From a virus (taxonomy: Duplodnaviria > Heunggongvirae > Uroviricota > Caudoviricetes): DNA of 64,000 bases. Below the pieces are notes generated by a model. It was not told the origin of the DNA, did no database searches, and saw only the letters and a list, made by a program, of their open reading frames with translations. Positions 46,060 through 63,074 of this stretch are shown here, in pieces. The stretch lies in the IMG/VR virus record IMGVR_UViG_2897328257_000003; one strand, given 5' to 3'. Both the position numbers and the translations under genes were made by a program. Numbering within the stretch: position 1 is the first letter of the stretch; each line of letters starts with the position of its first letter.

Positions 46060-47804
46060 AACTGGCACCGAACGTAAAAAAACAGCCACGCGGAATAAAA
46101 CACAAAGACACAGAGGTGATTATTTTCGCGGGTAGTGATGCGTGGGCACATGCAAAACAGTGGCAGGAGCAGGACGGCCCCGCATCCGGCGATAATGTGC
46201 CTCCTGTGTGGCTTGGGCCAAATCAGCTTGCCGAACTTGATGCACTGCAAATTGTTCCTGATGGAAAAAAACGCGTAAGGCTGTACCAGGCAGGAGAACT
46301 GGACTTGGTGGAGACCAAAAAGATTGGTCAGAAGCTGGCGGCGGCAGATATTCAGGACACAAATTTTTACCCCGAAGGAATGCACGCCCAGAAGTGTGAA
46401 AACTGGCGGCGCTATCTGAATGCTGAGCGTGAAAATATTGCCGCAGGGCTTACCATGCCGGAGCAGAAAAATACGCAACTGGCACAAATGGCAGACAGTG
46501 AGCGCGCCCAGCTGCTTGCTGGTCGATTTGATGGCGTTTGCGTACATCCTGAAAGTGAAATCGTTCACGTATGGCGCGGCGGGGTATGGTGTCCGGTCAG
46601 CACAATGGAACTTAGCCGCGAAATGGTGGCGATCTATTCAGAGCACAGGGCCACTTTCAGCAAGCGCGTAATCAATAACGCCGTGGAAGCGTTAAAAGTT
46701 ATTGCCGAACCAATGGGCGAGCCGTCTGGCGATTTGCTGCCGTTCGCCAATGGTGCGCTTGACCTGAAAACAGGGGAATTTTCCCCGCACACGCCGGAGA
46801 ACTGGATCACCACGCACAACGGCATTGAGTACACGCCACCAGCACCAGGGGAGAACATCCGCGATAACGCGCCAAACTTTCATAAATGGCTTGAGCACGC
46901 AGCCGGAAAAGACCCGCGCAAGATGATGCGTATATGTGCCGCGCTGTACATGATTATGGCGAACCGGTACGACTGGCAGATGTTTATTGAGGCCACCGGA
47001 GACGGCGGGAGCGGTAAAAGTACATTCACACACATAGCCAGCCTTCTGGCAGGGAAACAGAACACGGTAAGCGCTGAAATGACATCGCTTGATGATGCTG
47101 GTGGACGTGCGCAGGTTGTCGGGAGTCGTCTTATCGTCCTGGCTGACCAGCCGAAATATACAGGCGAAGGAACGGGCATCAAGAAAATCACAGGCGGCGA
47201 CCCCGTGGAAATTAACCCGAAATATGAAAAGCGTTTCACGGCGGTAATCAGGGCGGTGGTGCTGGCGACCAACAACAACCCGATGATATTCACCGAACGG
47301 GCCGGAGGTGTGGCACGTCGTCGCGTGATTTTCCGTTTCGACAATATCGTCAGTGAGGCCGAAAAAGACAGGGAGCTACCGGAAAAGATTGCGGCTGAAA
47401 TCCCCGTTATTATCCGCCGATTGCTGGCGAACTTTACCGACCCTGAGAAGGCACGGGCTTTACTACTGGAACAGCGTGACGGTGATGAAGCACTGGCAAT
47501 AAAGCAACAGACGGATCCGGTTATTGAGTTTTGCCAGTTCCTGAATTTTCTGGAGGAAGCGCGCGGCCTGATGATGGGTGGCGGTGGTGATTCAGTGAAG
47601 TACACGACCAGGAACAGCCTTTACCGCGTCTATCTGGCGTTTATGGCATACGCGGGCAGGAGCAAACCGCTAAACGTGGCTGAGTTCAGCAAGGCCATGA
47701 AGCCAGCGGCGAAAGTTTACGGGCATGAATATATTACGCGAAAAGTTAAGGGAGTAACGCAGACCAACGCAATTACAACAGACGATTGCGACGCGTTTTT
47801 ATAA
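46056..47804 (+). CDS. P4-family phage/plasmid primase / replication initiator with P-loop NTPase domain
   Basis: 582 aa; Walker A FIEATGDGGSGKST; N-terminal region (VIIFAGSDAWAHAKQWQEQDG) shared with island-2 primase, central region divergent. Confidence 0.85.
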   Translation: MKLAPNVKKQPRGIKHKDTEVIIFAGSDAWAHAKQWQEQDGPASGDNVPPVWLGPNQLAELDALQIVPDGKKRVRLYQAGELDLVETKKIGQKLAAADIQDTNFYPEGMHAQKCENWRRYLNAERENIAAGLTMPEQKNTQLAQMADSERAQLLAGRFDGVCVHPESEIVHVWRGGVWCPVSTMELSREMVAIYSEHRATFSKRVINNAVEALKVIAEPMGEPSGDLLPFANGALDLKTGEFSPHTPENWITTHNGIEYTPPAPGENIRDNAPNFHKWLEHAAGKDPRKMMRICAALYMIMANRYDWQMFIEATGDGGSGKSTFTHIASLLAGKQNTVSAEMTSLDDAGGRAQVVGSRLIVLADQPKYTGEGTGIKKITGGDPVEINPKYEKRFTAVIRAVVLATNNNPMIFTERAGGVARRRVIFRFDNIVSEAEKDRELPEKIAAEIPVIIRRLLANFTDPEKARALLLEQRDGDEALAIKQQTDPVIEFCQFLNFLEEARGLMMGGGGDSVKYTTRNSLYRVYLAFMAYAGRSKPLNVAEFSKAMKPAAKVYGHEYITRKVKGVTQTNAITTDDCDAFL

Positions 47805-48075
47805 TTTTTTGTAAAAGCCATCTACCCCATCTACCTGAACGAAATAAACGCATATTATTCAACATGATAAGTGGGTATAGGGCTAGGTAGAAGGCTAATA
47901 AAAGCTCTCTACCTCTTCTACCTGATTTTATCAGTTTCAGGTAGCAGGGTAGACGGCAGGTAGAGGAGTCAAAAAAGCTATCTACCCGCTGAAAGCGGCG
48001 CCATTACTGACATGATGAGCATTCGGGTAGATGGGTAGAGGGGGGGGAGGCACAACTAAAAACTTTTTAAACGAG
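47805..48075. repeat. Iteron array, putative island-1 replication origin
   Basis: At least 10 copies of TCTACC/GGTAGA-type motifs in both orientations (catctaccccatctacc, ggtagaagg, ctctacctcttctacc, caggtagcagggtagacggcaggtagagg, cgggtagatgggtagagg) directly after the primase gene. Confidence 0.65.
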
Positions 48076-48822: not shown

Positions 48823-49095
48823 ATGGCACATGACCGCATAGCGGAGGAACTCGAGGCAAAAGGCTTTTACCGGAGGGCGGCGGCGCGATGGGGTGAAGTC
48901 ATGCAACTGGTGGAGACAGACAAGGAACGGCATCAGGTTACGATGCGACGGCTGGAATGTTCCAGGAAGGCACAGAGGCCACCGGAGCCGCCGGATAACT
49001 TCGGAGACCTGAGAAAGGCAGTCGATCGCACTTATGCTGAAATGGGTATGGATGGTGTAAGCGATGAAATATGGCGTAATTACACAGACAGCTAA
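48823..49095 (+). CDS. PerC/Pch-family-like transcriptional regulator (putative)
   Basis: 90 aa from the ATG after SD gagggggtga; motif AEELEAKGFYRRAAARWGEVM resembles the conserved core of PerC-family activators. Recalled family signature, not searched. Confidence 0.5.
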   Translation: MAHDRIAEELEAKGFYRRAAARWGEVMQLVETDKERHQVTMRRLECSRKAQRPPEPPDNFGDLRKAVDRTYAEMGMDGVSDEIWRNYTDS

Positions 49096-49100
49096 TCAAC

Positions 49101-49125
49101 AGCCGGAGCAATCCGGCTTTTTGTT
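49101..49125 (+). terminator. Rho-independent terminator (agccggagcaatccggc + T-run)
   Basis: 6-bp GC-rich stem gccgga/tccggc, 4-nt loop, then TTTTT; the same hairpin recurs at 60418 and 62332. Confidence 0.6.
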
Positions 49126-49344
49126 ATTTTTTGTAAATTATTTGTTCGTGGTTGTTCCACGTTGTTCACTGAGCGGATCGGCATATTTTACCCGAACTGA
49201 ATCATGATTATTCTCGCCCGTGGTGCCAGGACGCTGGGGCCACTTTCCCGCCTGTTAATGTGCCCGCCAATATTCATTACCAGGCGGGAAAACGATCGGT
49301 GCGATTGCTGATTTCCTTATGAAAAACGGTTGAGTGTTTGCCGC

Positions 49345-49382
49345 GTCCTGGAGTTCCTTACTTAACCCCAGGACTTTTTTTT
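49345..49382 (+). terminator. Hairpin plus T8 tract abutting the capsid gene start (terminator/attenuator-like)
   Basis: gtcctgg-N15-ccaggac followed by tttttttt then ATG (49383); no SD for the capsid gene; half-site gttgagtgttt at 49329-49341 resembles the island control palindrome. Confidence 0.4.
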
Positions 49383-50540
49383 ATGCAGAGAATAATCGAA
49401 TTACGCCAGCAGAAAACCGCCATTAAAAATCAGATGCGTGACATGCTGGAGAACGCGGAAAAAGAAAACCGCAGTCTTAACGATGCTGAGGGCGCAAAAT
49501 TTGACGAATTACGCGCTAAAGCTGAATCCCTCGATAAAGACATTTCCCGCCTTGAAGCCATTGCAGACGAAGAGCGCAGCAAGCCAGCTAAAAGCAGTCA
49601 GACCACTGACCCCGCAGAACTACGCAACTACATTCTGACAGGTGAAACCCGCGCATTAAGTACAGGCGTTCCCGCTGATGGTGGTTATACCGTTATCCCC
49701 GAGCTGAACACCGAAATCATGCGAATGCTGGCGGATGAATCCACCATGCGCCGCATCTGTACCGTGAAGAAAATCAGCAGCAACGAGTTTAAGCAGCTTG
49801 TTTCCGCTGGCGGTGCGACCGTTAACCACGGTGAAGAGGCTAAGGCACGCGAACAGACCAGCACCCCGCAGATTAACGAGGTGAGCATTAAGCTGTATCC
49901 GGTCTATGCGTACCCGCGCACCACACAGGAAATCGTGGATTTTTCCGATGTGGACATCCTTTCATGGCTGACGGGCGAGATTGGCGACACCTTCACGGAA
50001 ACCGAAGAAAGCGATCTGGTTGTGGGCGACGGTGACAAAAAAGCAAAAGGTTTTTTATCCGTACCCCGTGCAGAGAAGAACGACAAAGAGCGTGATTTTG
50101 GTACGTTGCAGGTAATTAAACCTTCCGAATCTCTGGCGTGGACATCTGCGGACCCGCTGATCGACCTGAAATTTGCATTACGTAAAAAATACCGCAAAAA
50201 CGCGGTCTGGGTGGTTAACTCCACGACGGCGGCAAAACTTCAGAAGGTGAAGAACGCGAACGGTGATTACATCTGGCGCGACCGTTTACAGGCGGGTGAT
50301 CCTGATACGTTGCTGGGCCTTCCGGTCGAATATCTGGAGTTTATGCCTGATAACGTTATTGCCCTGGGTGACTTCAAACGCGGTTACTACATTGTTGATC
50401 ACGAAACAGGTGTTCGCACCAGACCGGACAACCTCACAGAGCCGGGTTTCATCAAAATTTTCACGCAGAAATATTTAGGCGGTGGCGTGGTGGATTCGAA
50501 CGCGATCAAGATTCTGGAACTGCCACAGGACGACGATTAA
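49383..50540 (+). CDS. Major capsid protein, HK97 family
   Basis: About 385 aa; N-terminal coiled-coil delta-like region (ELRQQKTAIKNQMRDMLENAEKE...LDKDISRLEA) followed by typical HK97-fold MCP body; start refined from the six-frame ORF at 49338. Confidence 0.88.
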   Translation: MQRIIELRQQKTAIKNQMRDMLENAEKENRSLNDAEGAKFDELRAKAESLDKDISRLEAIADEERSKPAKSSQTTDPAELRNYILTGETRALSTGVPADGGYTVIPELNTEIMRMLADESTMRRICTVKKISSNEFKQLVSAGGATVNHGEEAKAREQTSTPQINEVSIKLYPVYAYPRTTQEIVDFSDVDILSWLTGEIGDTFTETEESDLVVGDGDKKAKGFLSVPRAEKNDKERDFGTLQVIKPSESLAWTSADPLIDLKFALRKKYRKNAVWVVNSTTAAKLQKVKNANGDYIWRDRLQAGDPDTLLGLPVEYLEFMPDNVIALGDFKRGYYIVDHETGVRTRPDNLTEPGFIKIFTQKYLGGGVVDSNAIKILELPQDDD

Positions 50541-50594
50541 CAGCATACAGAAGGGGCTTAAAAGCCCCTTTAGTGTTTTATGGGTGAAAAATTT

Positions 50595-51152
50595 ATGAAG
50601 AGTATGGAAATCCGGTCATCGGAAATCACTACCAGCGGCAGCAACACGCTTACAGGCTACGTTGTTCGCTGGGATAAGCTTTCAGAACTGTTATGGGGTG
50701 AGTTTTACGAAAAATTCCAGCGGGGGGCGTTTACTGAATGGCTTGCGGCGGGTAATGACGTTCGCGGCCTGTATGAGCATGACCACAGTATGTTACTGGG
50801 GCGCACCCGTTCCGGCACGCTGAAACTGGAAGAGGATGAAACAGGGTTACGCTTTGAACTGACCCCACCGGATACCAGTACAGGGCGCGACGTTATCGAA
50901 CTGGTTAAACGTGGTGATATATCCGGCATGAGCTTTGGCTTTCGCTCCCGTAAGGATGTATGGGATACCACAACAGATCCATGCGTGCGCACCGTGCTGG
51001 TGGCGGAACTGTACGAAATTACCGTTACATCGGTACCGGCTTACCCCGATTCCGGCGTGGAGCTGGCCCGCCGTTCCCTGTATGAGCAGCACCCCGAAAA
51101 AATGCCGCGTGCGGATAATCGCCGCTGGTGGGTGGATTTAGCGGGGGTGTGA
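50595..51152 (+). CDS. Prohead maturation protease, HK97 family
   Basis: About 185 aa; pattern GYVVRWD...F.E.F..GAF......DVRGL.EHD...LLGRT.SGTL.LEED..GL.FEL.PPDT..GRDV.ELV.RGD.SGMSFGF matches prohead proteases. Confidence 0.85.
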   Translation: MKSMEIRSSEITTSGSNTLTGYVVRWDKLSELLWGEFYEKFQRGAFTEWLAAGNDVRGLYEHDHSMLLGRTRSGTLKLEEDETGLRFELTPPDTSTGRDVIELVKRGDISGMSFGFRSRKDVWDTTTDPCVRTVLVAELYEITVTSVPAYPDSGVELARRSLYEQHPEKMPRADNRRWWVDLAGV

Positions 51153-57082: not shown

Positions 57083-57382
57083 ATGAGAACATATTTATCT
57101 GGCTTGACTGCCAGCGGTTATGCACACCCCAAAATTATCCCCGGCGCTATTTATCTGGATAAGAACGGTAACAGAGTAACGGTAAAAGAACTGATGTTTG
57201 ACCGTGTGTATTTTATCCGTGATGGCTATTCATTTCTTAGTTCGCTGAACGTGGAGATCTTTATTAGCAGATTCAGGCGGGAAATCCCGCTTTCCAGAAA
57301 TAACCATGTGTCATGTATGGATGTTGATAAAAAACTACAGGAACTAAAAAACATGATTGCCGCGTGGAGAGAGCAGAAATGA
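57083..57382 (+). CDS. Hypothetical protein with GLTASG motif (99 aa)
   Basis: Counterpart of 45760-46059; stop overlaps primase start. Confidence 0.5.
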   Translation: MRTYLSGLTASGYAHPKIIPGAIYLDKNGNRVTVKELMFDRVYFIRDGYSFLSSLNVEIFISRFRREIPLSRNNHVSCMDVDKKLQELKNMIAAWREQK

Positions 57383-59196
57383 AAAAAGCGCCAAATTTAA
57401 AACACCAGCCACGTGACAAAATGATGGAAGTCATCATTTTTGCGGGTAGTGATGCGTGGGCACATGCGAAGCAATGGCAGGAACAGGACGGGCGACTGGC
57501 TGGCGACAGCGTGCCTCCTGTCTGGCTTGGAGAGCAACAACTTGCCGAACTGGACAACCTGCAAATCGTACCGGACGGACGCTATCGCGTGCGTCTCTAT
57601 CAGGCGGGGTTATTGCGTCCGGGGCTTGTTAATACCATCGGGCAGAAACTGGCAGCGGCAGGTGTCAGGGATGCTGATTATTACCCTGAAGGAATGCACA
57701 GCCAGAAACGGGAGAACTGGCGCGAATATCTGGAACGTGAACGGGCAGAGCAGGCGGAAAAGAAAAAGGTAGTTGAACTGCCTGTAAAGAAAAAAGAGCG
57801 GGTAAAAGACGATAACGCTTCATCACTGGCGCTTAACCAGATGGGAGCAAGTCAACGCGGCGAAGTTCTCCTGGCACATTATGGCGGTGAACTGGCGATT
57901 CATGCTGACTCTGACACTGTTCACTATTACAACGGCGTTGTATGGGAGCCAGTACAGGATAAAGAATTACAGCGAGCTATGGCACAGATTTTCATTGATG
58001 CGGAGATCAGCTATTCGCAGAACGCCATTAAATCGGCGGTCGATACCATGAAGTTAAGTTTGCCTGTAATGGGGAATACAGCCCGTAACCTGATTGGATT
58101 CAGTAACGGTGTTTTTGATACCCGGACAGGCGATTTTCGGGAGCATAACAAAAACGACTGGTTGTTAATTGCCAGTGAATTACCTTTCAGCCCACCAGCA
58201 GAGGGGGAAACGCTGGCAACACATGCGCCGAATTTCTGGAAGTGGTTACGCCGTTCGGTGGCTGAGAATGACCGCAAGGCGGATCGCGTACTGGCTGCAT
58301 TATTCATGGTGCTGGCGAACCGGTACGACTGGCAGTTATTCATTGAGGTAACAGGTCCAGGGGGAAGTGGTAAAAGCGTGATGGCGGAGATTTGCACCAT
58401 GCTGGCGGGTAAGGCCAACACGGTATCGGCAAGCATGAAGGCGCTGGAAGATGCCAGGGAACGCGCGTTAGTGGTTGGCTTTTCGCTGATTATCATGCCG
58501 GATATGACCCGTTACGCTGGTGATGGCGCAGGAATTAAGGCCATTACAGGCGGTGACAAGGTGGCAATCGACCCGAAGCATAAAGCCCCCTACTCAACAC
58601 GCATTCAGGCGGTAGTGTTGGCGGTGAACAATAACGCCATGTCATTCAGTGACCGCAGCGGGGGGATTTCACGTCGTCGGGTGATATTCAATTTTTCGGA
58701 GGTTGTACCGGAAAACGAACGCGACCCCATGCTGGCAGAAAAAATAGAAGGAGAGCTGGCGGTTGTGATTCGCCACCTGCTTACTCGTTTTTCTGACCAG
58801 GACGAAGCTAAACGCCTGCTGTATGAGCAGCAGAAATCAGAAGAAGCTCTGGTGATAAAACGCGAGGGCGATTCGCTGGTGGACTTCTGCGGCTATCTCA
58901 TGTCGTCGGTAATGTGTGATGGTCTGTTAGTGGGTAATGCCGAAATTATTCCGTTCAGTCCGCGCAGGTATCTTTATCACGCCTATCTGGCATATATGAG
59001 GGCACACGGATTCGGTAAACCTGTAACACTGACGCGCTTCGGTAAAGATATGCCGGGGGCAATGGCGGAATATGGCAGGGAGTATATGAAACGGAAAACG
59101 AAGCACGGTTTGCGTTCAAATGTGACCCTGACAGAGGATTCAGAAGACTGGATGCCATCATGTGCATCGGTCACAAATGACGATGGAAAAAATTAA
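57379..59196 (+). CDS. P4-family phage/plasmid primase / replication initiator (island-2 allele)
   Basis: About 605 aa; Walker A FIEVTGPGGSGKSV; N-terminus and C-terminal domain related to island-1 primase, middle divergent; start refined to MKKAPNLK; six-frame ORF starts at 57364. Confidence 0.85.
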   Translation: MKKAPNLKHQPRDKMMEVIIFAGSDAWAHAKQWQEQDGRLAGDSVPPVWLGEQQLAELDNLQIVPDGRYRVRLYQAGLLRPGLVNTIGQKLAAAGVRDADYYPEGMHSQKRENWREYLERERAEQAEKKKVVELPVKKKERVKDDNASSLALNQMGASQRGEVLLAHYGGELAIHADSDTVHYYNGVVWEPVQDKELQRAMAQIFIDAEISYSQNAIKSAVDTMKLSLPVMGNTARNLIGFSNGVFDTRTGDFREHNKNDWLLIASELPFSPPAEGETLATHAPNFWKWLRRSVAENDRKADRVLAALFMVLANRYDWQLFIEVTGPGGSGKSVMAEICTMLAGKANTVSASMKALEDARERALVVGFSLIIMPDMTRYAGDGAGIKAITGGDKVAIDPKHKAPYSTRIQAVVLAVNNNAMSFSDRSGGISRRRVIFNFSEVVPENERDPMLAEKIEGELAVVIRHLLTRFSDQDEAKRLLYEQQKSEEALVIKREGDSLVDFCGYLMSSVMCDGLLVGNAEIIPFSPRRYLYHAYLAYMRAHGFGKPVTLTRFGKDMPGAMAEYGREYMKRKTKHGLRSNVTLTEDSEDWMPSCASVTNDDGKN

Positions 59197-59460
59197 ACTT
59201 ATGGAATAACTGTTCACCACTGTTCAGCCTGCAATAAATGTCTTTTATATCAGTATATTATAGGGTGAACAGTTATTTATGAACTGTTCACCAAACTATT
59301 CACTGTTCACCTTTTTGATTCTTTATTGAGCTTTAAGGGTGAACAGTGGTGAACAGTTGGTGAATAGTTTTTGTGAAACTGTTCACCCCTTAACATCATG
59401 AATAAAAAGGGAAAATTGCAAAAGGTGAACAGGTGAAGGGTTGAAATGCAAAAATTTTAT
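59197..59460. repeat. Iteron array, putative island-2 replication origin (GTGAACAG-type)
   Basis: At least 10 copies of TGTTCACC/GGTGAACAG in both orientations (aactgttcaccactgttcag, gggtgaacagtt, gaactgttcaccaaactattcactgttcacc, gggtgaacagtggtgaacagttggtgaatag, ggtgaacaggtgaagg) right after the primase gene. Confidence 0.65.
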
Positions 59461-59483
59461 TTTATTGCTGTGAGGTAAAGCCT

Positions 59484-59729
59484 GTGACAACGAAGCACGC
59501 CAAAAAACCACAATCTCACGCCCTTGATTTGACAGAACACTGGCTGAGGGTGGCGATAAAAATCATCGACCGCAACGCCGGGGAAGGATACGCGAAGGAA
59601 CATCCCGACCTGATAAGCGCATTCATGACCACAGCAGCGGCAAACTTTGCCACGCTGACAGAACGGGAGATTGCCGAAGCGGAACAGGTAACAACCATCA
59701 ACGTTAAAACCGGAGAGGGGGCAGTATGA
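59484..59729 (+). CDS. Hypothetical protein conserved in both islands (homolog of 48091-48405)
   Basis: GTG start with SD gaggt; C-terminal region near-identical to island-1 copy. Confidence 0.55.
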   Translation: MTTKHAKKPQSHALDLTEHWLRVAIKIIDRNAGEGYAKEHPDLISAFMTTAAANFATLTEREIAEAEQVTTINVKTGEGAV

Positions 59730-60136
59730 CGGCACAGATAGCCGCTTACGGGCGGCTGGTGGACGACCCGCAGGTAAAACAGACCAGCAAGGGCACACCA
59801 ATGACGCTGGCTCGTATGGCGGTATCGCTGCCATGCAGCCAGGCACAGGACGGACAGGCGACGTTATGGCTGTCGGTCATCGCATTTGGCAAACAGTCCG
59901 ACTTCCTGGCTAAACATCAAAAAGGCGACGTTGCCAGCGTATCCGGCACGATGCAGGTAAGCCAGTGGACCGGACAGAACGGGGAGACGCGTCAGGGTTA
60001 TCAGGTTATTGCAGACAGCGTAATCAGTGCCCGTGCGGCACGTCCTGGCGGGAACAGACGCAAAACCACAGGCGCACAGGGTAATCAGCCACCAGCGGGA
60101 GACGATGATCCCTACGGTGATGATATTCCGTTCTGA
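59726..60136 (+). CDS. ssb: Single-stranded DNA-binding protein (SSB-like, C-terminal DDIPF)
   Basis: Near-identical to island-1 SSB; ends ...AGDDDPYGDDIPF. Confidence 0.75.
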   Translation: MTAQIAAYGRLVDDPQVKQTSKGTPMTLARMAVSLPCSQAQDGQATLWLSVIAFGKQSDFLAKHQKGDVASVSGTMQVSQWTGQNGETRQGYQVIADSVISARAARPGGNRRKTTGAQGNQPPAGDDDPYGDDIPF

Positions 60137-60146
60137 GGGGGTGACG

Positions 60147-60395
60147 ATGGTACATGACCGCATAGCGGAAGAACTCGAAGCGAAAGGATTTTACCGGAGG
60201 GCGGCGGCGCGATGGGGTGAAGTCATGATGCTGGTGGAGACAGACAAGGAACGGCATCACATCACGATGCGACGGCTGGAATGTTCCAGGAAGGCACAGA
60301 GGCCACCGGAGCCGCCAACGGAGAACTATGCAGACCTGAGAAATGCAGTAAATCGCACTTACGCAGACATGGGGCTGAGCAAATTAGCAGAGTAG
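60147..60395 (+). CDS. PerC/Pch-family-like transcriptional regulator (putative)
   Basis: 82 aa; AEELEAKGFYRRAAARWGEVM core shared with island-1 copy. Confidence 0.5.
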   Translation: MVHDRIAEELEAKGFYRRAAARWGEVMMLVETDKERHHITMRRLECSRKAQRPPEPPTENYADLRNAVNRTYADMGLSKLAE

Positions 60396-60416
60396 GAATA
60401 CCAGAACCACACCACA

Positions 60417-60490
60417 CAGCCGGAGCAATCCGGCTTTTTTGCGCCCAAAAAAAGCCCGATAAGGTCAGAGGTGGCTTATCGGGCTTTTGC
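60417..60490 (+). terminator. Tandem rho-independent terminators
   Basis: agccggagcaatccggc + T6, then aagcccgataag-N11-cttatcgggctt + TTTT (12-bp stem). Confidence 0.65.
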
Positions 60491-60649
60491 ATATGAGGCT
60501 TTTTGGTGCACTGACACACATGATCGGGATAATCATTTCATAATTTGCAACACAACTCAATATCATTGCACAAAATGCAATCATGATTATAATCATAACT
60601 GGATGAACATACAGTTGTGGTTTTTTAAGTCAAAGAGGAATTTCTTACT

Positions 60650-60856
60650 ATGGCTGAAGAGAAAAAAGGCGGTGTTTCGGTGTACATAAGCCCCGACATC
60701 GTGAAGGCGCTCAAGGAACGCCACCAGCAGAACGTAAAAGCAGGCATTGCGGCAGGACTTGATCCGCTGGCGATGGTTGAGCCGTCAACAGGCTGGCAGG
60801 TACGCGCCTATTTACGCGCGGCGCTGGGTATGAATCAGGTTCACGGGGGTGAATAA
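60650..60856 (+). CDS. Hypothetical 68-aa protein upstream of the gpE-like capsid gene
   Basis: SD aaagagg; stop overlaps the capsid gene start; no recognisable family. Confidence 0.45.
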   Translation: MAEEKKGGVSVYISPDIVKALKERHQQNVKAGIAAGLDPLAMVEPSTGWQVRAYLRAALGMNQVHGGE

Positions 60857-61911
60857 TGACAGGTAAAGCAACAGCACTTACCACTAATCAGCTTTTCACG
60901 TACCTGAATCGCGGGGATATTGCGGAATTTAAATTCAGTCCGCTGTTTACGACGCTGTTTTTCCCGAACGTGGCGACATTCAGCACCCAAAACATCATGC
61001 TGGATACCCTGGACATTGAAGAAGTCACCATGTCGGCGTTTTGTTCGCCTATGGTTGGCAGCCAGGTACAGCGCGATAAAGGGTACGAAACCAGCACAAT
61101 TAAACCTGGCTACATGAAGCCAAAGCACGAAATCGATCCAACGAAAACCATCATGCGCATGGCTGGAGAAGATCCAGCACAGCTTAACGACCCTACCTAC
61201 CGACGTATGCGCCTGATTACTGGCAACATGCGCCGCCAGGTAAACGCCATTAAAGCGCGCGTGGAATGGCTGGCGGTGAATGCGATAACGACCGGAAAAA
61301 ACATTATTGAGGGCGAAGGCATAGAACGCTATGAAATAGACTGGAAAATACCGGAAAACTGCATCATAGAGCAGGCCAAGGGTAAAAAATGGTCCGAGCA
61401 GGATAAAGAGATGCACGACCCAATCTATGACATCGAGCTTTATGCTGATCAGGCTGGTTGCCCCGCAAACGTCATGATTATGGGCGCTGAGGTATGGCGC
61501 ACGCTACGCAGCTTTAAAAAATTCCGTGAGCTGTACGATCTTTCCCGTGGTTCAGAATCCGCCGCAGAACTGGCCTGTAAAAACCTGGGCGAAGTGGTGA
61601 GCTTTAAAGGCTATCTGGGCGATATTGCCCTTATCGTCTATTCCGGCAAATACGCTGACAGCGACGGCACCGAAAAATATTTCCTTGAGCCTGATTTACT
61701 GGTCCTGGGTAACACCAACAATAAAGGCCTGGTGGCCTATGGTGCGATTATGGATCAGGAAGCGGTAAGAACGGGCGCAACGCAAAACATGTACTACCCG
61801 AAAAACTGGATTGAGGACGGCGATCCGGCGATTGAGTACGTGCAGACACACAGCGCACCGCAGCCGGTACCGGCAGATATTCGCAAATTTGTTACCGTCA
61901 AAATTGGTTAA
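60856..61911 (+). CDS. Major capsid protein, lambda gpE-like
   Basis: 351 aa; colinear similarity to lambda gpE as remembered (island KFSPLFTTLFF / PGYMKPKHEI / YPKNWIEDGDPA versus lambda KFDPLFLRLFF / PGYVKPKHEV / YPKNWVTTGDPA). Confidence 0.85.
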   Translation: MTGKATALTTNQLFTYLNRGDIAEFKFSPLFTTLFFPNVATFSTQNIMLDTLDIEEVTMSAFCSPMVGSQVQRDKGYETSTIKPGYMKPKHEIDPTKTIMRMAGEDPAQLNDPTYRRMRLITGNMRRQVNAIKARVEWLAVNAITTGKNIIEGEGIERYEIDWKIPENCIIEQAKGKKWSEQDKEMHDPIYDIELYADQAGCPANVMIMGAEVWRTLRSFKKFRELYDLSRGSESAAELACKNLGEVVSFKGYLGDIALIVYSGKYADSDGTEKYFLEPDLLVLGNTNNKGLVAYGAIMDQEAVRTGATQNMYYPKNWIEDGDPAIEYVQTHSAPQPVPADIRKFVTVKIG

Positions 61912-61922
61912 CGGGGGATTCT

Positions 61923-62258
61923 ATGGACACTCCATACATTGAGTTATTCGCAGGCAGTCAGCAGGTCGCCACGACGCTGGTACATTTTGCCGCTGATGCT
62001 GGCGTTATTCAGGAATTTACCCCGCTGATGCTGGCGGACAATGGCGAGTTTAAGCCGTGGGATGGTCAGGAATCTGGCAAGGCTGTTTATCTGACTTCGT
62101 ACCCCGTGGACACGTCGACGCAGAAATCAGCACAGTGTTACAAGACGGGGATATTTAATATCGCTGCCGTAAACTGGCCTGAGAGCGCCGACACTGACGC
62201 GAAAAAATGCGCTGCCTTTGCGGGGTCTGGCGTATCCGTTCAGCCGCTGGCGCGATAA
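61923..62258 (+). CDS. Head decoration protein, lambda gpD-like
   Basis: 111 aa; similar to lambda gpD as remembered (island FTPLMLADNGEFKPWDG...YKTGIFN...NWPESADTDAKKCAAFAGSGVSV versus lambda MTPLMLDTSSRKLVAWDG...YKSGTFR...[24 protein letters not shown]). Confidence 0.8.
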   Translation: MDTPYIELFAGSQQVATTLVHFAADAGVIQEFTPLMLADNGEFKPWDGQESGKAVYLTSYPVDTSTQKSAQCYKTGIFNIAAVNWPESADTDAKKCAAFAGSGVSVQPLAR

Positions 62259-62330
62259 GCAGGGGGAACGATGGCAGAACCCCGGGCGATGACGGCGACA
62301 TCGATCGCATACTGAAAACCATCTGAGACA

Positions 62331-62355
62331 GGCCGGAGAAATCCGGCTTTTTTTA
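62331..62355 (+). terminator. Rho-independent terminator (ggccggagaaatccggc + T7) just before cos
   Basis: Third copy of the gccgga/tccggc hairpin, followed by ttttttt. Confidence 0.6.
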
Positions 62356-62356
62356 C

Positions 62357-62430
62357 GGGTCCTTTCCGGCATATGGACCCGTTACGGGGCGGCGACCTCG
62401 CGGATTTTCGCTATTTATGAGCCTTTTCGG
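62357..62430 (+). promoter_or_regulatory. Lambda-type cos site 1 (cosQ-cosN conserved; predicted 12-nt cohesive end GGGCGGCGACCT at 62387-62398; divergent cosB)
   Basis: acgggtcctttccgg...gttacg|gggcggcgacctcgcggattttcgctatttatga matches the lambda right-end/left-end junction as remembered; downstream cosB region differs from lambda. Confidence 0.75.
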
Positions 62431-62531
62431 GTTTGTGGTGGTGGTTTTGTTGTTCGCTCTATCTCTATGAATAAAAAGGGAAAGATAAAACCAACACACC
62501 AACCTGAAACCTTAACTAAGTGGGTATATTG

Positions 62532-63074
62532 ATGAAATCGCACCTGATGAACAAAAAAAACATGGCGAAAAGCTGCCGTGTAAGTGCGACAGCGTTCGAC
62601 AAGTGGGGAGTGACACCCGTTGAACGTAAAGGCCGTGAGGCGTTTTATGATGTTGCCAGCGTGATAGACAATAGGGTTAACAATGCAATTAGCCAGCTTA
62701 CAAACGACAAAGTCGAGATTGATGATGATGAACTCTTACGAGTCAGGATCAGATTACTGACAGCACAGGCGGAGGCGCAGGAACTTAAAAACGAGCGCGA
62801 TCGCGGTGACGTGATTGATACAGAGTTTTGCATGTACGCGCTTTCAAAACTGGCAAGTCAGATTTCTTCAATCATGGACAGCCTCCCGCTTACTATGCAA
62901 AGGAACTTCCCACAGATGCCCCCCGCTATGCTGCATGGGCTTAAGAGGGAAGTAGTTAAAGCCTGTAATGCCAGTGCCAGAGTTGCCGACAACCTCCCAC
63001 AGATACTTGCTGATTACCTGAACGAAACAACCGGAAACGTACCGGAAAAGTTGCTACAGAAGAAAGGCGAGTAA
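62532..63074 (+). CDS. Terminase small subunit, lambda Nu1-like (divergent N-terminal DNA-binding region, conserved C-terminal region)
   Basis: About 180 aa; C-terminal half resembles lambda Nu1 (LTAQAEAQELKNERDRGDVIDTEFCMYALSKLASQISSIMDSLPLTMQRNFPQ); N-terminal HTH region divergent; lies directly downstream of cos1 as in lambda. Start could be 62520, 62532 or 62547. Confidence 0.78.
   Translation: MKSHLMNKKNMAKSCRVSATAFDKWGVTPVERKGREAFYDVASVIDNRVNNAISQLTNDKVEIDDDELLRVRIRLLTAQAEAQELKNERDRGDVIDTEFCMYALSKLASQISSIMDSLPLTMQRNFPQMPPAMLHGLKREVVKACNASARVADNLPQILADYLNETTGNVPEKLLQKKGE

Follow-up and report, generated by a model that had tools for sequence, protein, structure and literature searches.

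The capsid gene and its leader

The DNA analysed here – a stretch of 64,000 nucleotides (the window) from the IMG/VR virus record IMGVR_UViG_2897328257_000003 – carries a capsid-forming phage-inducible chromosomal island (cf-PICI) of the EcCIEDL933 type (EDL933/Sakai-Sp7), and the subject of this report is the leader that precedes the major capsid gene of this island. The capsid gene is the first gene of the packaging operon; upstream of it lies a conserved leader of approximately 163 nt that has promoter-like elements of its own and three hairpins (H1, H2 and H3), the last of which closes the leader and adjoins the capsid start codon. A PerC-family gene (PF06069; 48823-49095) is the last gene before this module. 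The features of the region are as follows.

49101..49132, + strand: intrinsic terminator 3' of the PerC-family gene: AGCCGGAGCAATCCGGCT plus a T-rich tail (7 bp, 5 GC pairs, loop of 4)
49129..49145, + strand: conserved 17-nt box, TTTTGTAAATTATTTGT (= TTTTGTAAATTATTYGT), the upstream boundary of the module
49142..49167, + strand: three TTGTTC repeats (at 49142, 49152 and 49162) with an exact spacing of 10 bp, into which the box runs
49187..49214, + strand: putative sigma-70 promoter (-35 TTTACC, 49187-49192; N16; -10 TATTCT, 49209-49214)
~49220, + strand: predicted transcript start, the first G of H1 (GTGGTGCC)
49220..49243, + strand: H1, the 5'-terminal hairpin, GUGGUGCCAG-GACG-CUGGGGCCAC (-15.6 kcal/mol)
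49226..49234, + strand: CCAGGACGC, the top of H1 and proposed antiterminator strand, a perfect complement of 49343-49351
49244..49291, + strand: H2, a long hairpin, UUUCCCGCCUG...CAGGCGGGAAA (-22.6 kcal/mol), kept in structure and not in sequence
49343..49351, + strand: GCGUCCUGG, the 5' arm of H3 plus 2 nt, which pairs with 49226-49234 or with 49368-49374
49345..49374, + strand: H3, a terminator-shaped hairpin with a 7-bp stem (-12.7 kcal/mol)
49370..49373, + strand: AGGA, resembling a Shine-Dalgarno sequence (SD), the sole one before the capsid gene, inside the 3' arm of H3
49375..49382, + strand: T8 run directly 3' of the H3 stem, at once the U-tract of H3 and the spacer from SD to AUG
49383..50540, + strand: HK97-fold major capsid gene, 385 aa (PGAP; Pfam PF05065; PDB 9gyi)
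50550..50579, + strand: hairpin (9-bp stem) with a U-rich tail, after the capsid gene

The stem of H3 is formed by GTCCTGG (49345-49351) and CCAGGAC (49368-49374), which make five G-C pairs, one of them at the stem base. The loop is 16 nt long and holds a small inner helix of 3 bp (GUU/AAC), the formation of which shrinks the loop to 8 nt. The original prediction placed a hairpin and a T8 run two bases before the capsid ATG: both elements are present, but the gap is 0 bases, the ATG (49383-49385) following directly upon the last T. The calculation of folding energy that was then proposed has been run and bears out the structure, in that the 65-nt stretch folds with -17.9 kcal/mol (z = -2.66; 4 of 200 shuffles equal it). 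Folding of the whole intergenic region of 290 nt gives z = -4.43.

The capsid gene had also been said to lack an SD. This is correct in so far as the SD is weak: AGGA, at a spacing of 8-9 nt from the AUG, pairs with the 3' end of 16S rRNA at -4.0 kcal/mol, against -12.4 kcal/mol for the portal gene and -15.5 kcal/mol for the PerC-family gene of the same window. The element nevertheless exists and is sequestered within the H3 stem, and H3 – with an SD paired in a stem that ends near the AUG – has the form of an SD-sequestering hairpin. It does not have that of an RNA thermometer, its predicted energy being -14.6 kcal/mol at 30 °C, -12.7 kcal/mol at 37 °C and -11.2 kcal/mol at 42 °C.

H3 together with the T8 run also has the composition of an intrinsic terminator, namely a stable, GC-rich stem with an adjacent tract of six to eight U residues (here U8). 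Runs of T6 or longer number 55 over both strands of the window; only three of them are T8 runs, that of the capsid leader included, and H3 plus T8 is among the four best hairpin-plus-T-run sites of the 55, level with the canonical terminator that follows the PerC-family gene (the perC terminator; hairpin at 49101-49118, dG -12.0). A d'Aubenton-Carafa-type score is +21 for H3 and +31 for the perC terminator. H3 was not listed by the terminator scan because the scan stops at loops of 8 nt.

That the true start of the capsid gene might lie elsewhere, as had been suggested, is ruled out by several lines of evidence. The N-terminus, M-[QPK]-[RK]-[IL]-[IL]-E-L-R-Q, is kept at the homologous ATG in approximately 150 related loci, and indels occur upstream of the conserved Met; PGAP annotation of the identical region of strain RM10042 gives the capsid gene as 49383-50540, with the same Met; and the cryo-EM structure 9gyi is of an identical 385-residue protein that starts at this residue. 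The in-frame TTG at 49338, which the open reading frame (ORF) lister had picked, was rejected as a start because variation between T7 and T8 breaks the upstream frame: in most relatives the run is T7, which throws the TTG out of frame. On this evidence ATG 49383 is the true capsid start.

As for transcription, the sequence is such that the operon appears to be insulated and self-promoted. The perC terminator, which is kept after the upstream gene in relatives, would insulate the capsid operon from upstream transcription; because this terminator is strong, the operon needs a promoter of its own, as it also does in loci where the upstream genes point away. A consensus drawn from 76 distinct upstream regions, TTTAC(T/A)-N16-TAT(C/G)TT-N5-GTGG, with conservation of 97-100% at the key -10 positions, marks the putative promoter, and its spacing predicts the transcript start given above. 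The 17-nt box lies approximately 91 nt before this putative start and is present as a single copy in the window. In 82 loci, drawn from IMG/VR, E. coli, Shigella and Rosenbergiella, an exact match to it precedes a capsid homologue by 211-259 nt, the capsids being 48-99% identical over their N-terminal 120 residues, and the position of the box is kept also where the upstream genes are divergent. The box is thus invariant across capsid lineages that share just 48% identity over these residues. The TTGTTC repeats are partly conserved in relatives; together, at ~50-90 bp upstream of the putative start, box and repeats look like a candidate activator-binding array.

In many relatives (locus L003, ~2795-2835, and many IMG/VR loci) a terminator hairpin with its U-tract overlaps the -35 region of the capsid promoter, for example CCCCUGUCUCUGACGGGGG UUUUCUUU; as a second design, it would keep upstream transcription out of the operon. 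A sigma-54 promoter based on TGGCAC in H1 was rejected, the -12 element being absent on inspection. That the conserved region is a cos site or a replication origin was judged unlikely; the cos site of HK97-type systems is situated between HNH and terS, and no cos location is given in the cf-PICI papers.

The putative -10 region (49206-49215, GATTATTCTC) forms a perfect 10-bp inverted repeat with capsid codons 2-5 (49388-49397, GAGAATAATC). The duplex of the two arms has -14.8 kcal/mol (p ~0.001 by shuffling) and is significant solely in the EDL933-type lineage, the complementarity being weaker and variable in other lineages. Both arms would be present solely in transcripts entering from upstream, which would thus be silenced, by analogy with fold-back inhibition in IS10/Tn10, where a sequence upstream of the element's own start is likewise complementary to the start of the coding region.

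Conservation and structure of the leader RNA

The query region is 100% identical to that of E. coli O43 RM10042 and 97.5% identical to that of O157 EDL933. It was found in 488 of 5426 complete E. coli genomes (in 353 at an identity of at least 95%), and the leader module was compared over approximately 150 related cf-PICI loci. A scan of genome contigs with a single protein yielded nine loci, two of which were of use. The leader family was defined by the box TTTTGTAAATTATTYGT, TTTAC-N16-TATnTT, an H1 with a GACG loop at +1, H2, and a hairpin 3-8 nt before an HK97-type capsid ATG: the window has every one of these elements at the expected spacing. The exact H1 sequence of other lineages occurs in 121 loci, in each of which a capsid gene follows. 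In the phage collection the leader is confined to three records, a 16.5-kb "phage" of cf-PICI size, a 3.8-kb fragment and a 106-kb phage record.

No family of Rfam 15 matches the leader, either in the window or in four loci of other lineages. The sole Rfam overlap in the window is that of a plant microRNA model with the H2 palindrome, which at 16.7 bits (E ~2; gathering score 245) is at the level of chance. The RNA family is thus undescribed in Rfam and in the cf-PICI literature searched; the type of mechanism proposed below is itself familiar. Homology of the leaders is evident from their alignments; MAFFT aligned the H3 3' arm inconsistently.

Every version of the leader that was folded has the three hairpins, and these differ in how they are conserved. 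The outer stem of H1 and its GACG loop are common to all relatives, while three inner pairs differ on both sides between lineages. The basal stem of H2 occurs in 37 distinct forms (9-13 bp) among 78 leaders; in an alignment of 23 sequences, compensatory changes affect 10 of 12 pairs, and none of 500 shuffles reaches the observed score. Judged by this covariation, which proves H2, the leader is a selected RNA structure. H3 ends 3-8 nt before the AUG in all lineages, and its 3' arm holds the sole SD-like purines, for which other lineages carry an equivalent GGA or GAGA.

A GC-rich H3 followed by a run of T7-8 is peculiar to the EDL933-type lineage. Aligned with other lineages, this lineage has an insertion of 27 nt and a replaced 3' arm of H3. 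Its T run is T7 in 33 copies and T8 in nine, and is never shorter than seven; variants of the stem are mostly neutral or stabilising (one, seen four times, lengthens the stem to 11 bp), with two single isolates, L210 and L226, in which the stem is weakened. The lineage is young, its members being 95-100% identical over the N-terminal 120 residues of the capsid protein.

Within the 27-nt insertion lies a mini-ORF of four codons (49319-49333; AUG AAA AAC GGU UGA) that has no SD; one relative (L111) alters two of the codons, with frame and stop kept. As a leader peptide it was rejected: it is without an SD and is confined to one lineage.

Competing pairings and their interpretation

Over 7 nt (CCAGGAC) the proposed antiterminator strand at the top of H1 is identical to the 3' arm of H3. 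In 51 of 51 distinct leaders first examined, the H1-loop region has perfect complementarity of 7-9 nt to the 5' side of H3, the complementary H3 side being located 34-40 nt before the ATG. In the window the alternative helix has 9 bp (duplex -19.8 kcal/mol) and covers all 7 nt of the H3 5' arm: as in an attenuator, the alternative helix and the terminator stem are mutually exclusive.

The two conformations are also of nearly equal energy at the point of decision. For nascent RNA ending at 49351-49365 the alternative state has -51.0 to -53.5 kcal/mol and the H1 state -50.8 to -52.3 kcal/mol; the alternative helix is the minimum-energy fold of nascent RNA to 49365 and differs from the H1 state by 0.2-1.2 kcal/mol. 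Transcription of the H3 3' arm tips the balance to H1 plus H3, by ~10 kcal/mol. Other lineages have a similar balance of energies in a different register, the 3' half of H1 pairing with GGUUUCACGUC; the pairs that flank the helix also differ between lineages. Given 23 non-EDL933 leaders, RNAalifold picks the long-range alternative helix, which is 99.6% paired, H3 reaching 89.5%. One natural variant, with C for U, disrupts H3 while making a G-U pair of the alternative helix a G-C pair.

Our preferred explanation, held tentatively, is that the leader is a terminator/antiterminator attenuator that also hides the SD. The evidence for it is the anatomy of the region, the conservation of the module, covariation in H2 and in the inner stem of H1, the competing complementarity, and the near-equal energies; promoter, start site, termination and operation of the switch we infer. 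The weak sigma-70 promoter of the capsid operon would give a transcript that begins at ~G49220 and contains H1, H2 and H3. With H1 formed, the 5' arm of H3 would be free, H3 would fold, and RNA polymerase (RNAP) would release, within the U-run and one base short of the AUG, an RNA of ~160 nt; in a read-through message with H3 folded, the ribosome-binding site would be closed. Pairing of the H1 apex (49226-34) with the 5' arm of H3 (49343-51) would block the terminator and free the SD. In this way the leader would set or regulate both the amount of capsid-operon mRNA and its translation; candidate triggers are the kinetics of RNAP and satellite proteins, for instance PerC/PchE or the phrog_1957 product described below. 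The original prediction proposed that the late operon is gated by antitermination or attenuation or by a structured leader: the structured leader and attenuation find support in the conserved leader, the covariation of H2 and the competing pairing, whereas antitermination of the factor type finds none.

Several observations weigh against this explanation. The 16-nt loop of H3 falls outside the 3-8 nt typical of an intrinsic terminator and is long for an efficient one, and the promoter of the window matches 8 of 12 consensus positions and was not listed by the promoter scan. Covariation is lacking for both H3 and the alternative helix, in that H1 and the 5' arm of H3 are invariant within the large lineage, and on the 23 leaders 9 of the 12 pairs of the alternative helix are invariant and none is altered on both sides. 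By shuffling, the complementarity of H1 and H3 has p ~0.01-0.05 per lineage, the lineages being related and not independent. There is no conserved leader ORF, and no sensor of the kind that attenuators possess was identified. Neither Tree 2014 nor Sy 2020, nor a search by locus tag, yielded a small RNA (sRNA), transcription start site or 3'-end record for the locus. In the prototype island, overexpression of alpA alone gives abundant capsids (cf-PICI literature); because of this any block has to be incomplete, or be lifted by factors of the island or the host, and a helper-phage factor is not strictly needed. Finally, the T run is absent from all 77 distinct leaders of other lineages, and termination is therefore not the ancestral function of H3: by this comparison it would be a derived trait, added to a hairpin that was already present at the ribosome-binding site.

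A wider version of the attenuator, which strikes us as possible but doubtful, is that a bistable leader, common to the cf-PICIs of Enterobacterales (in at least 150 loci and ~9% of complete E. coli genomes), gates the capsid operon and is flipped by a satellite or helper factor, translational masking having been converted in EDL933/Sakai to termination, with a U-tailed RNA of ~160 nt that may act in trans. If true, the shared leader would couple capsid production to the cycle of the helper.

What the hairpin does in lineages that have no U-run bears on the strongest of the alternatives, according to which U8 is a translational enhancer of the S1 type that offsets the weak SD, with the hairpin presenting or protecting it (5'-untranslated-region stability) and little or no termination occurring in vivo. 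The hairpin is kept 3-8 nt before the AUG in the U-run-free lineages, and its conserved role is therefore not termination; no lineage has more than a weak SD (-3 to -4 kcal/mol), though the capsid is the product most needed; the U-run occupies exactly the spacer between SD and AUG; and the 16-nt loop fits a poor terminator. A precedent for a translational U8 is the rnd (RNase D) leader of E. coli, where – in work by Zhang and Deutscher (1989/1992) – a hairpin is reportedly followed by U8 and the U-run needed for translation. A stable stem with a G-C pair at its base and an adjacent U7-8 is, however, the physical signal for intrinsic termination, and some termination would be hard to avoid; other lineages, moreover, do without the U-run, and enhancement of translation leaves both the competing pairing of H1 with H3 and the balanced energies unexplained. 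We regard this alternative as rather unlikely.

The young age of the EDL933-type lineage, which is nearly clonal at this position, opens the way to a reading without regulatory meaning: H3 would have been rebuilt by insertion and replacement, and the T run produced by slippage. The 27-nt insertion and the replaced 3' arm relative to other lineages fit such neutral remodelling, as do the T7/T8 length polymorphism, which is typical of slippage, and the weakened stems of L210 and L226. Yet the rebuilt hairpin again adjoins the AUG and again hides SD-like purines, and the inner stem of H1 has changed in the same lineage in a manner that fits the new 5' arm (the cognate duplex has -23.2 kcal/mol, against -16.7 kcal/mol with the H1 of other lineages); a useless signal of terminator grade before the main structural gene would also be costly. 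Neutral remodelling is on balance improbable.

Less probable still is that the leader RNA, once terminated, is a product in its own right: a stable, trans-acting sRNA of ~160 nt whose terminator hairpin and long U-tail fit binding by Hfq or ProQ, and which would act on messages of helper phage or host. A promoter and terminator 163 nt apart would define a discrete RNA. U-tails of seven or more are typical of Hfq-dependent sRNAs, and that of the leader fits this. A ProQ/FinO-family protein is encoded just upstream in some sister islands, and StxS, the short PR' transcript of Stx phages, is a precedent for a terminated leader that serves as an sRNA (PMC7547250). Set against this, the leader is absent from the listed Hfq-bound sRNAs of E. 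coli O157 Sakai, which carries the island as Sp7; no target was identified; and the other lineages, being without the terminator, could not make such an RNA.

Factor-dependent processive antitermination – by lambda Q, P. aeruginosa AlpA, N-nut or HK022 put, with a modified RNAP that ignores both H3 and the terminator after the capsid gene – has a lambda PR'-tR'-like layout in its favor (promoter, short leader, terminator, late genes), together with the second terminator-like hairpin after the capsid gene and the adjacent position of H1 and H2 near the 5' end, as in put RNA, but is the least probable of all and is unsupported in the window: the AlpA of the island is a protein of 62 aa with PF05930 only, unlike the ring-forming antiterminator of ~150 aa from P. 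aeruginosa (PMC9371919), and was rejected as a Q-like antiterminator; the annotation of the RM10042 island and of EDL933 contains no Q-like gene; neither a -10-like pause element in the first transcribed bases (GUGGUGCCAGGACG) nor boxA/boxB was seen by eye; sequence similarity of the leader to phages is limited to cf-PICI-like records; and the sequence of H2, unlike that of put, is free to vary.

Genomic setting and comparison with known systems

The PerC-family gene upstream of the module is a homologue of pchE (ECs_1588) of O157 Sakai (NC_002695.2, 1601772-1602044). The Sakai island is annotated "prophage Sp7; untypable" and lies between roxA and phoQ; the annotation of RM10042 places its island in tqsA. 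EDL933 (locus L208, 6768-6992), Sakai (ECs_1589) and ~2/3 of related loci have, after PerC and before the terminator and box, a gene of 74-82 aa (phrog_1957, no Pfam hit), which is missing from the window, where the PerC stop runs directly into the terminator (49095-49101). In some T-run-free sister islands PerC is replaced by a ProQ/FinO-family RNA-binding protein (L012, 697-1239; L013, 690-1232), the gene for which lies a few hundred bases upstream of the leader. Upstream of ~48.0 kb the window is not colinear with RM10042 (~43684-48000 compared with L001): the offset shifts by 593 bp, and an ORF of 582 aa (46056-47804) stands where RM10042 has a RepA helicase of 469 aa. By this comparison the replication module is mosaic, although the leader is 100% identical to that of RM10042.

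Downstream of the capsid gene, the hairpin at 50550-50579 is probably a partial terminator that sets the ratio of capsid to downstream gene. The annotated ATG of the protease (50580) abuts this hairpin and its U-rich tail and has no SD; an in-frame ATG at 50595 has the SD GGTGA 7 nt upstream and, judged by this signal, may be the real protease start. The succession of hairpin, U-run and AUG as a start design that recurs at the protease gene was accordingly set aside as probably an effect of annotation.

A second satellite-like element (57364-64000) follows the cf-PICI, with these features.

57364-59196: D5-type primase
59726-60136: single-stranded DNA-binding protein (SSB)
60147-60395: PerC-family protein
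60419-60434: terminator hairpin GCCGGAGCAATCCGGC, shared with the cf-PICI perC
60856-61911: lambda gpE-like capsid protein
61923-62258: gpD-like decoration protein
62332-62347: third copy of the terminator motif
62520-63074: Nu1-like small terminase

In both satellites of the window, PerC is the last gene before the head genes.

cf-PICIs were recognised just in 2022-2023, and the cf-PICI literature searched is silent on transcription and translation of the packaging operon. The leader module offers a concrete and easily mutated control point, and it bears on how a satellite with capsids of its own making, but dependent on a helper phage for tails, adjusts the timing and amount of its capsids to that helper. 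These islands are under development as delivery particles: constructs with a foreign promoter would carry or lose the terminator along with the concealed ribosome-binding site. The module of E. coli O157 is part of prophage Sp7, where it adjoins pchE, a regulator gene linked to virulence.

Comparison with known systems brings out both what is shared and what is particular to the leader. In ROSE and fourU thermometers, as here, SD-like purines are paired in a hairpin a few nt before the AUG; H3 differs in being too stable and too regular for physiological melting, and in the U-run that follows. The rnd leader reportedly likewise has a terminator-like hairpin and eight U just 5' of a poorly signalled start; there, a separate SD and a UUG start come after the U-run, whereas here the U-run is the spacer and the SD lies in the stem, and the two are not homologous. 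The PR'-tR' region of lambda and Stx phages (6S RNA, StxS; PMC7547250) resembles the leader in its succession of promoter and terminator, with a short RNA as the default and structural genes expressed on read-through; the cf-PICI leader is without a Q gene, Q-binding element or sigma-dependent pause and has a competing pairing of its own instead.

The closest likeness in design is to the attenuators of trp, his and pyrBI and those of T-box, PyrR and riboswitch type, where the 5' arm of a leader terminator pairs alternatively with an upstream segment: in these classical systems too the alternative segment is held in an earlier hairpin, the competition is three-way and the decision falls during transcription. 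Unlike them, the cf-PICI leader showed no leader peptide, no ligand pocket and no motif for the binding of tRNA or protein. Here, in addition, the terminator abuts the AUG and contains the SD, such that a single stem would gate both transcription and translation, and in sister lineages the same scaffold bears a non-terminating hairpin.

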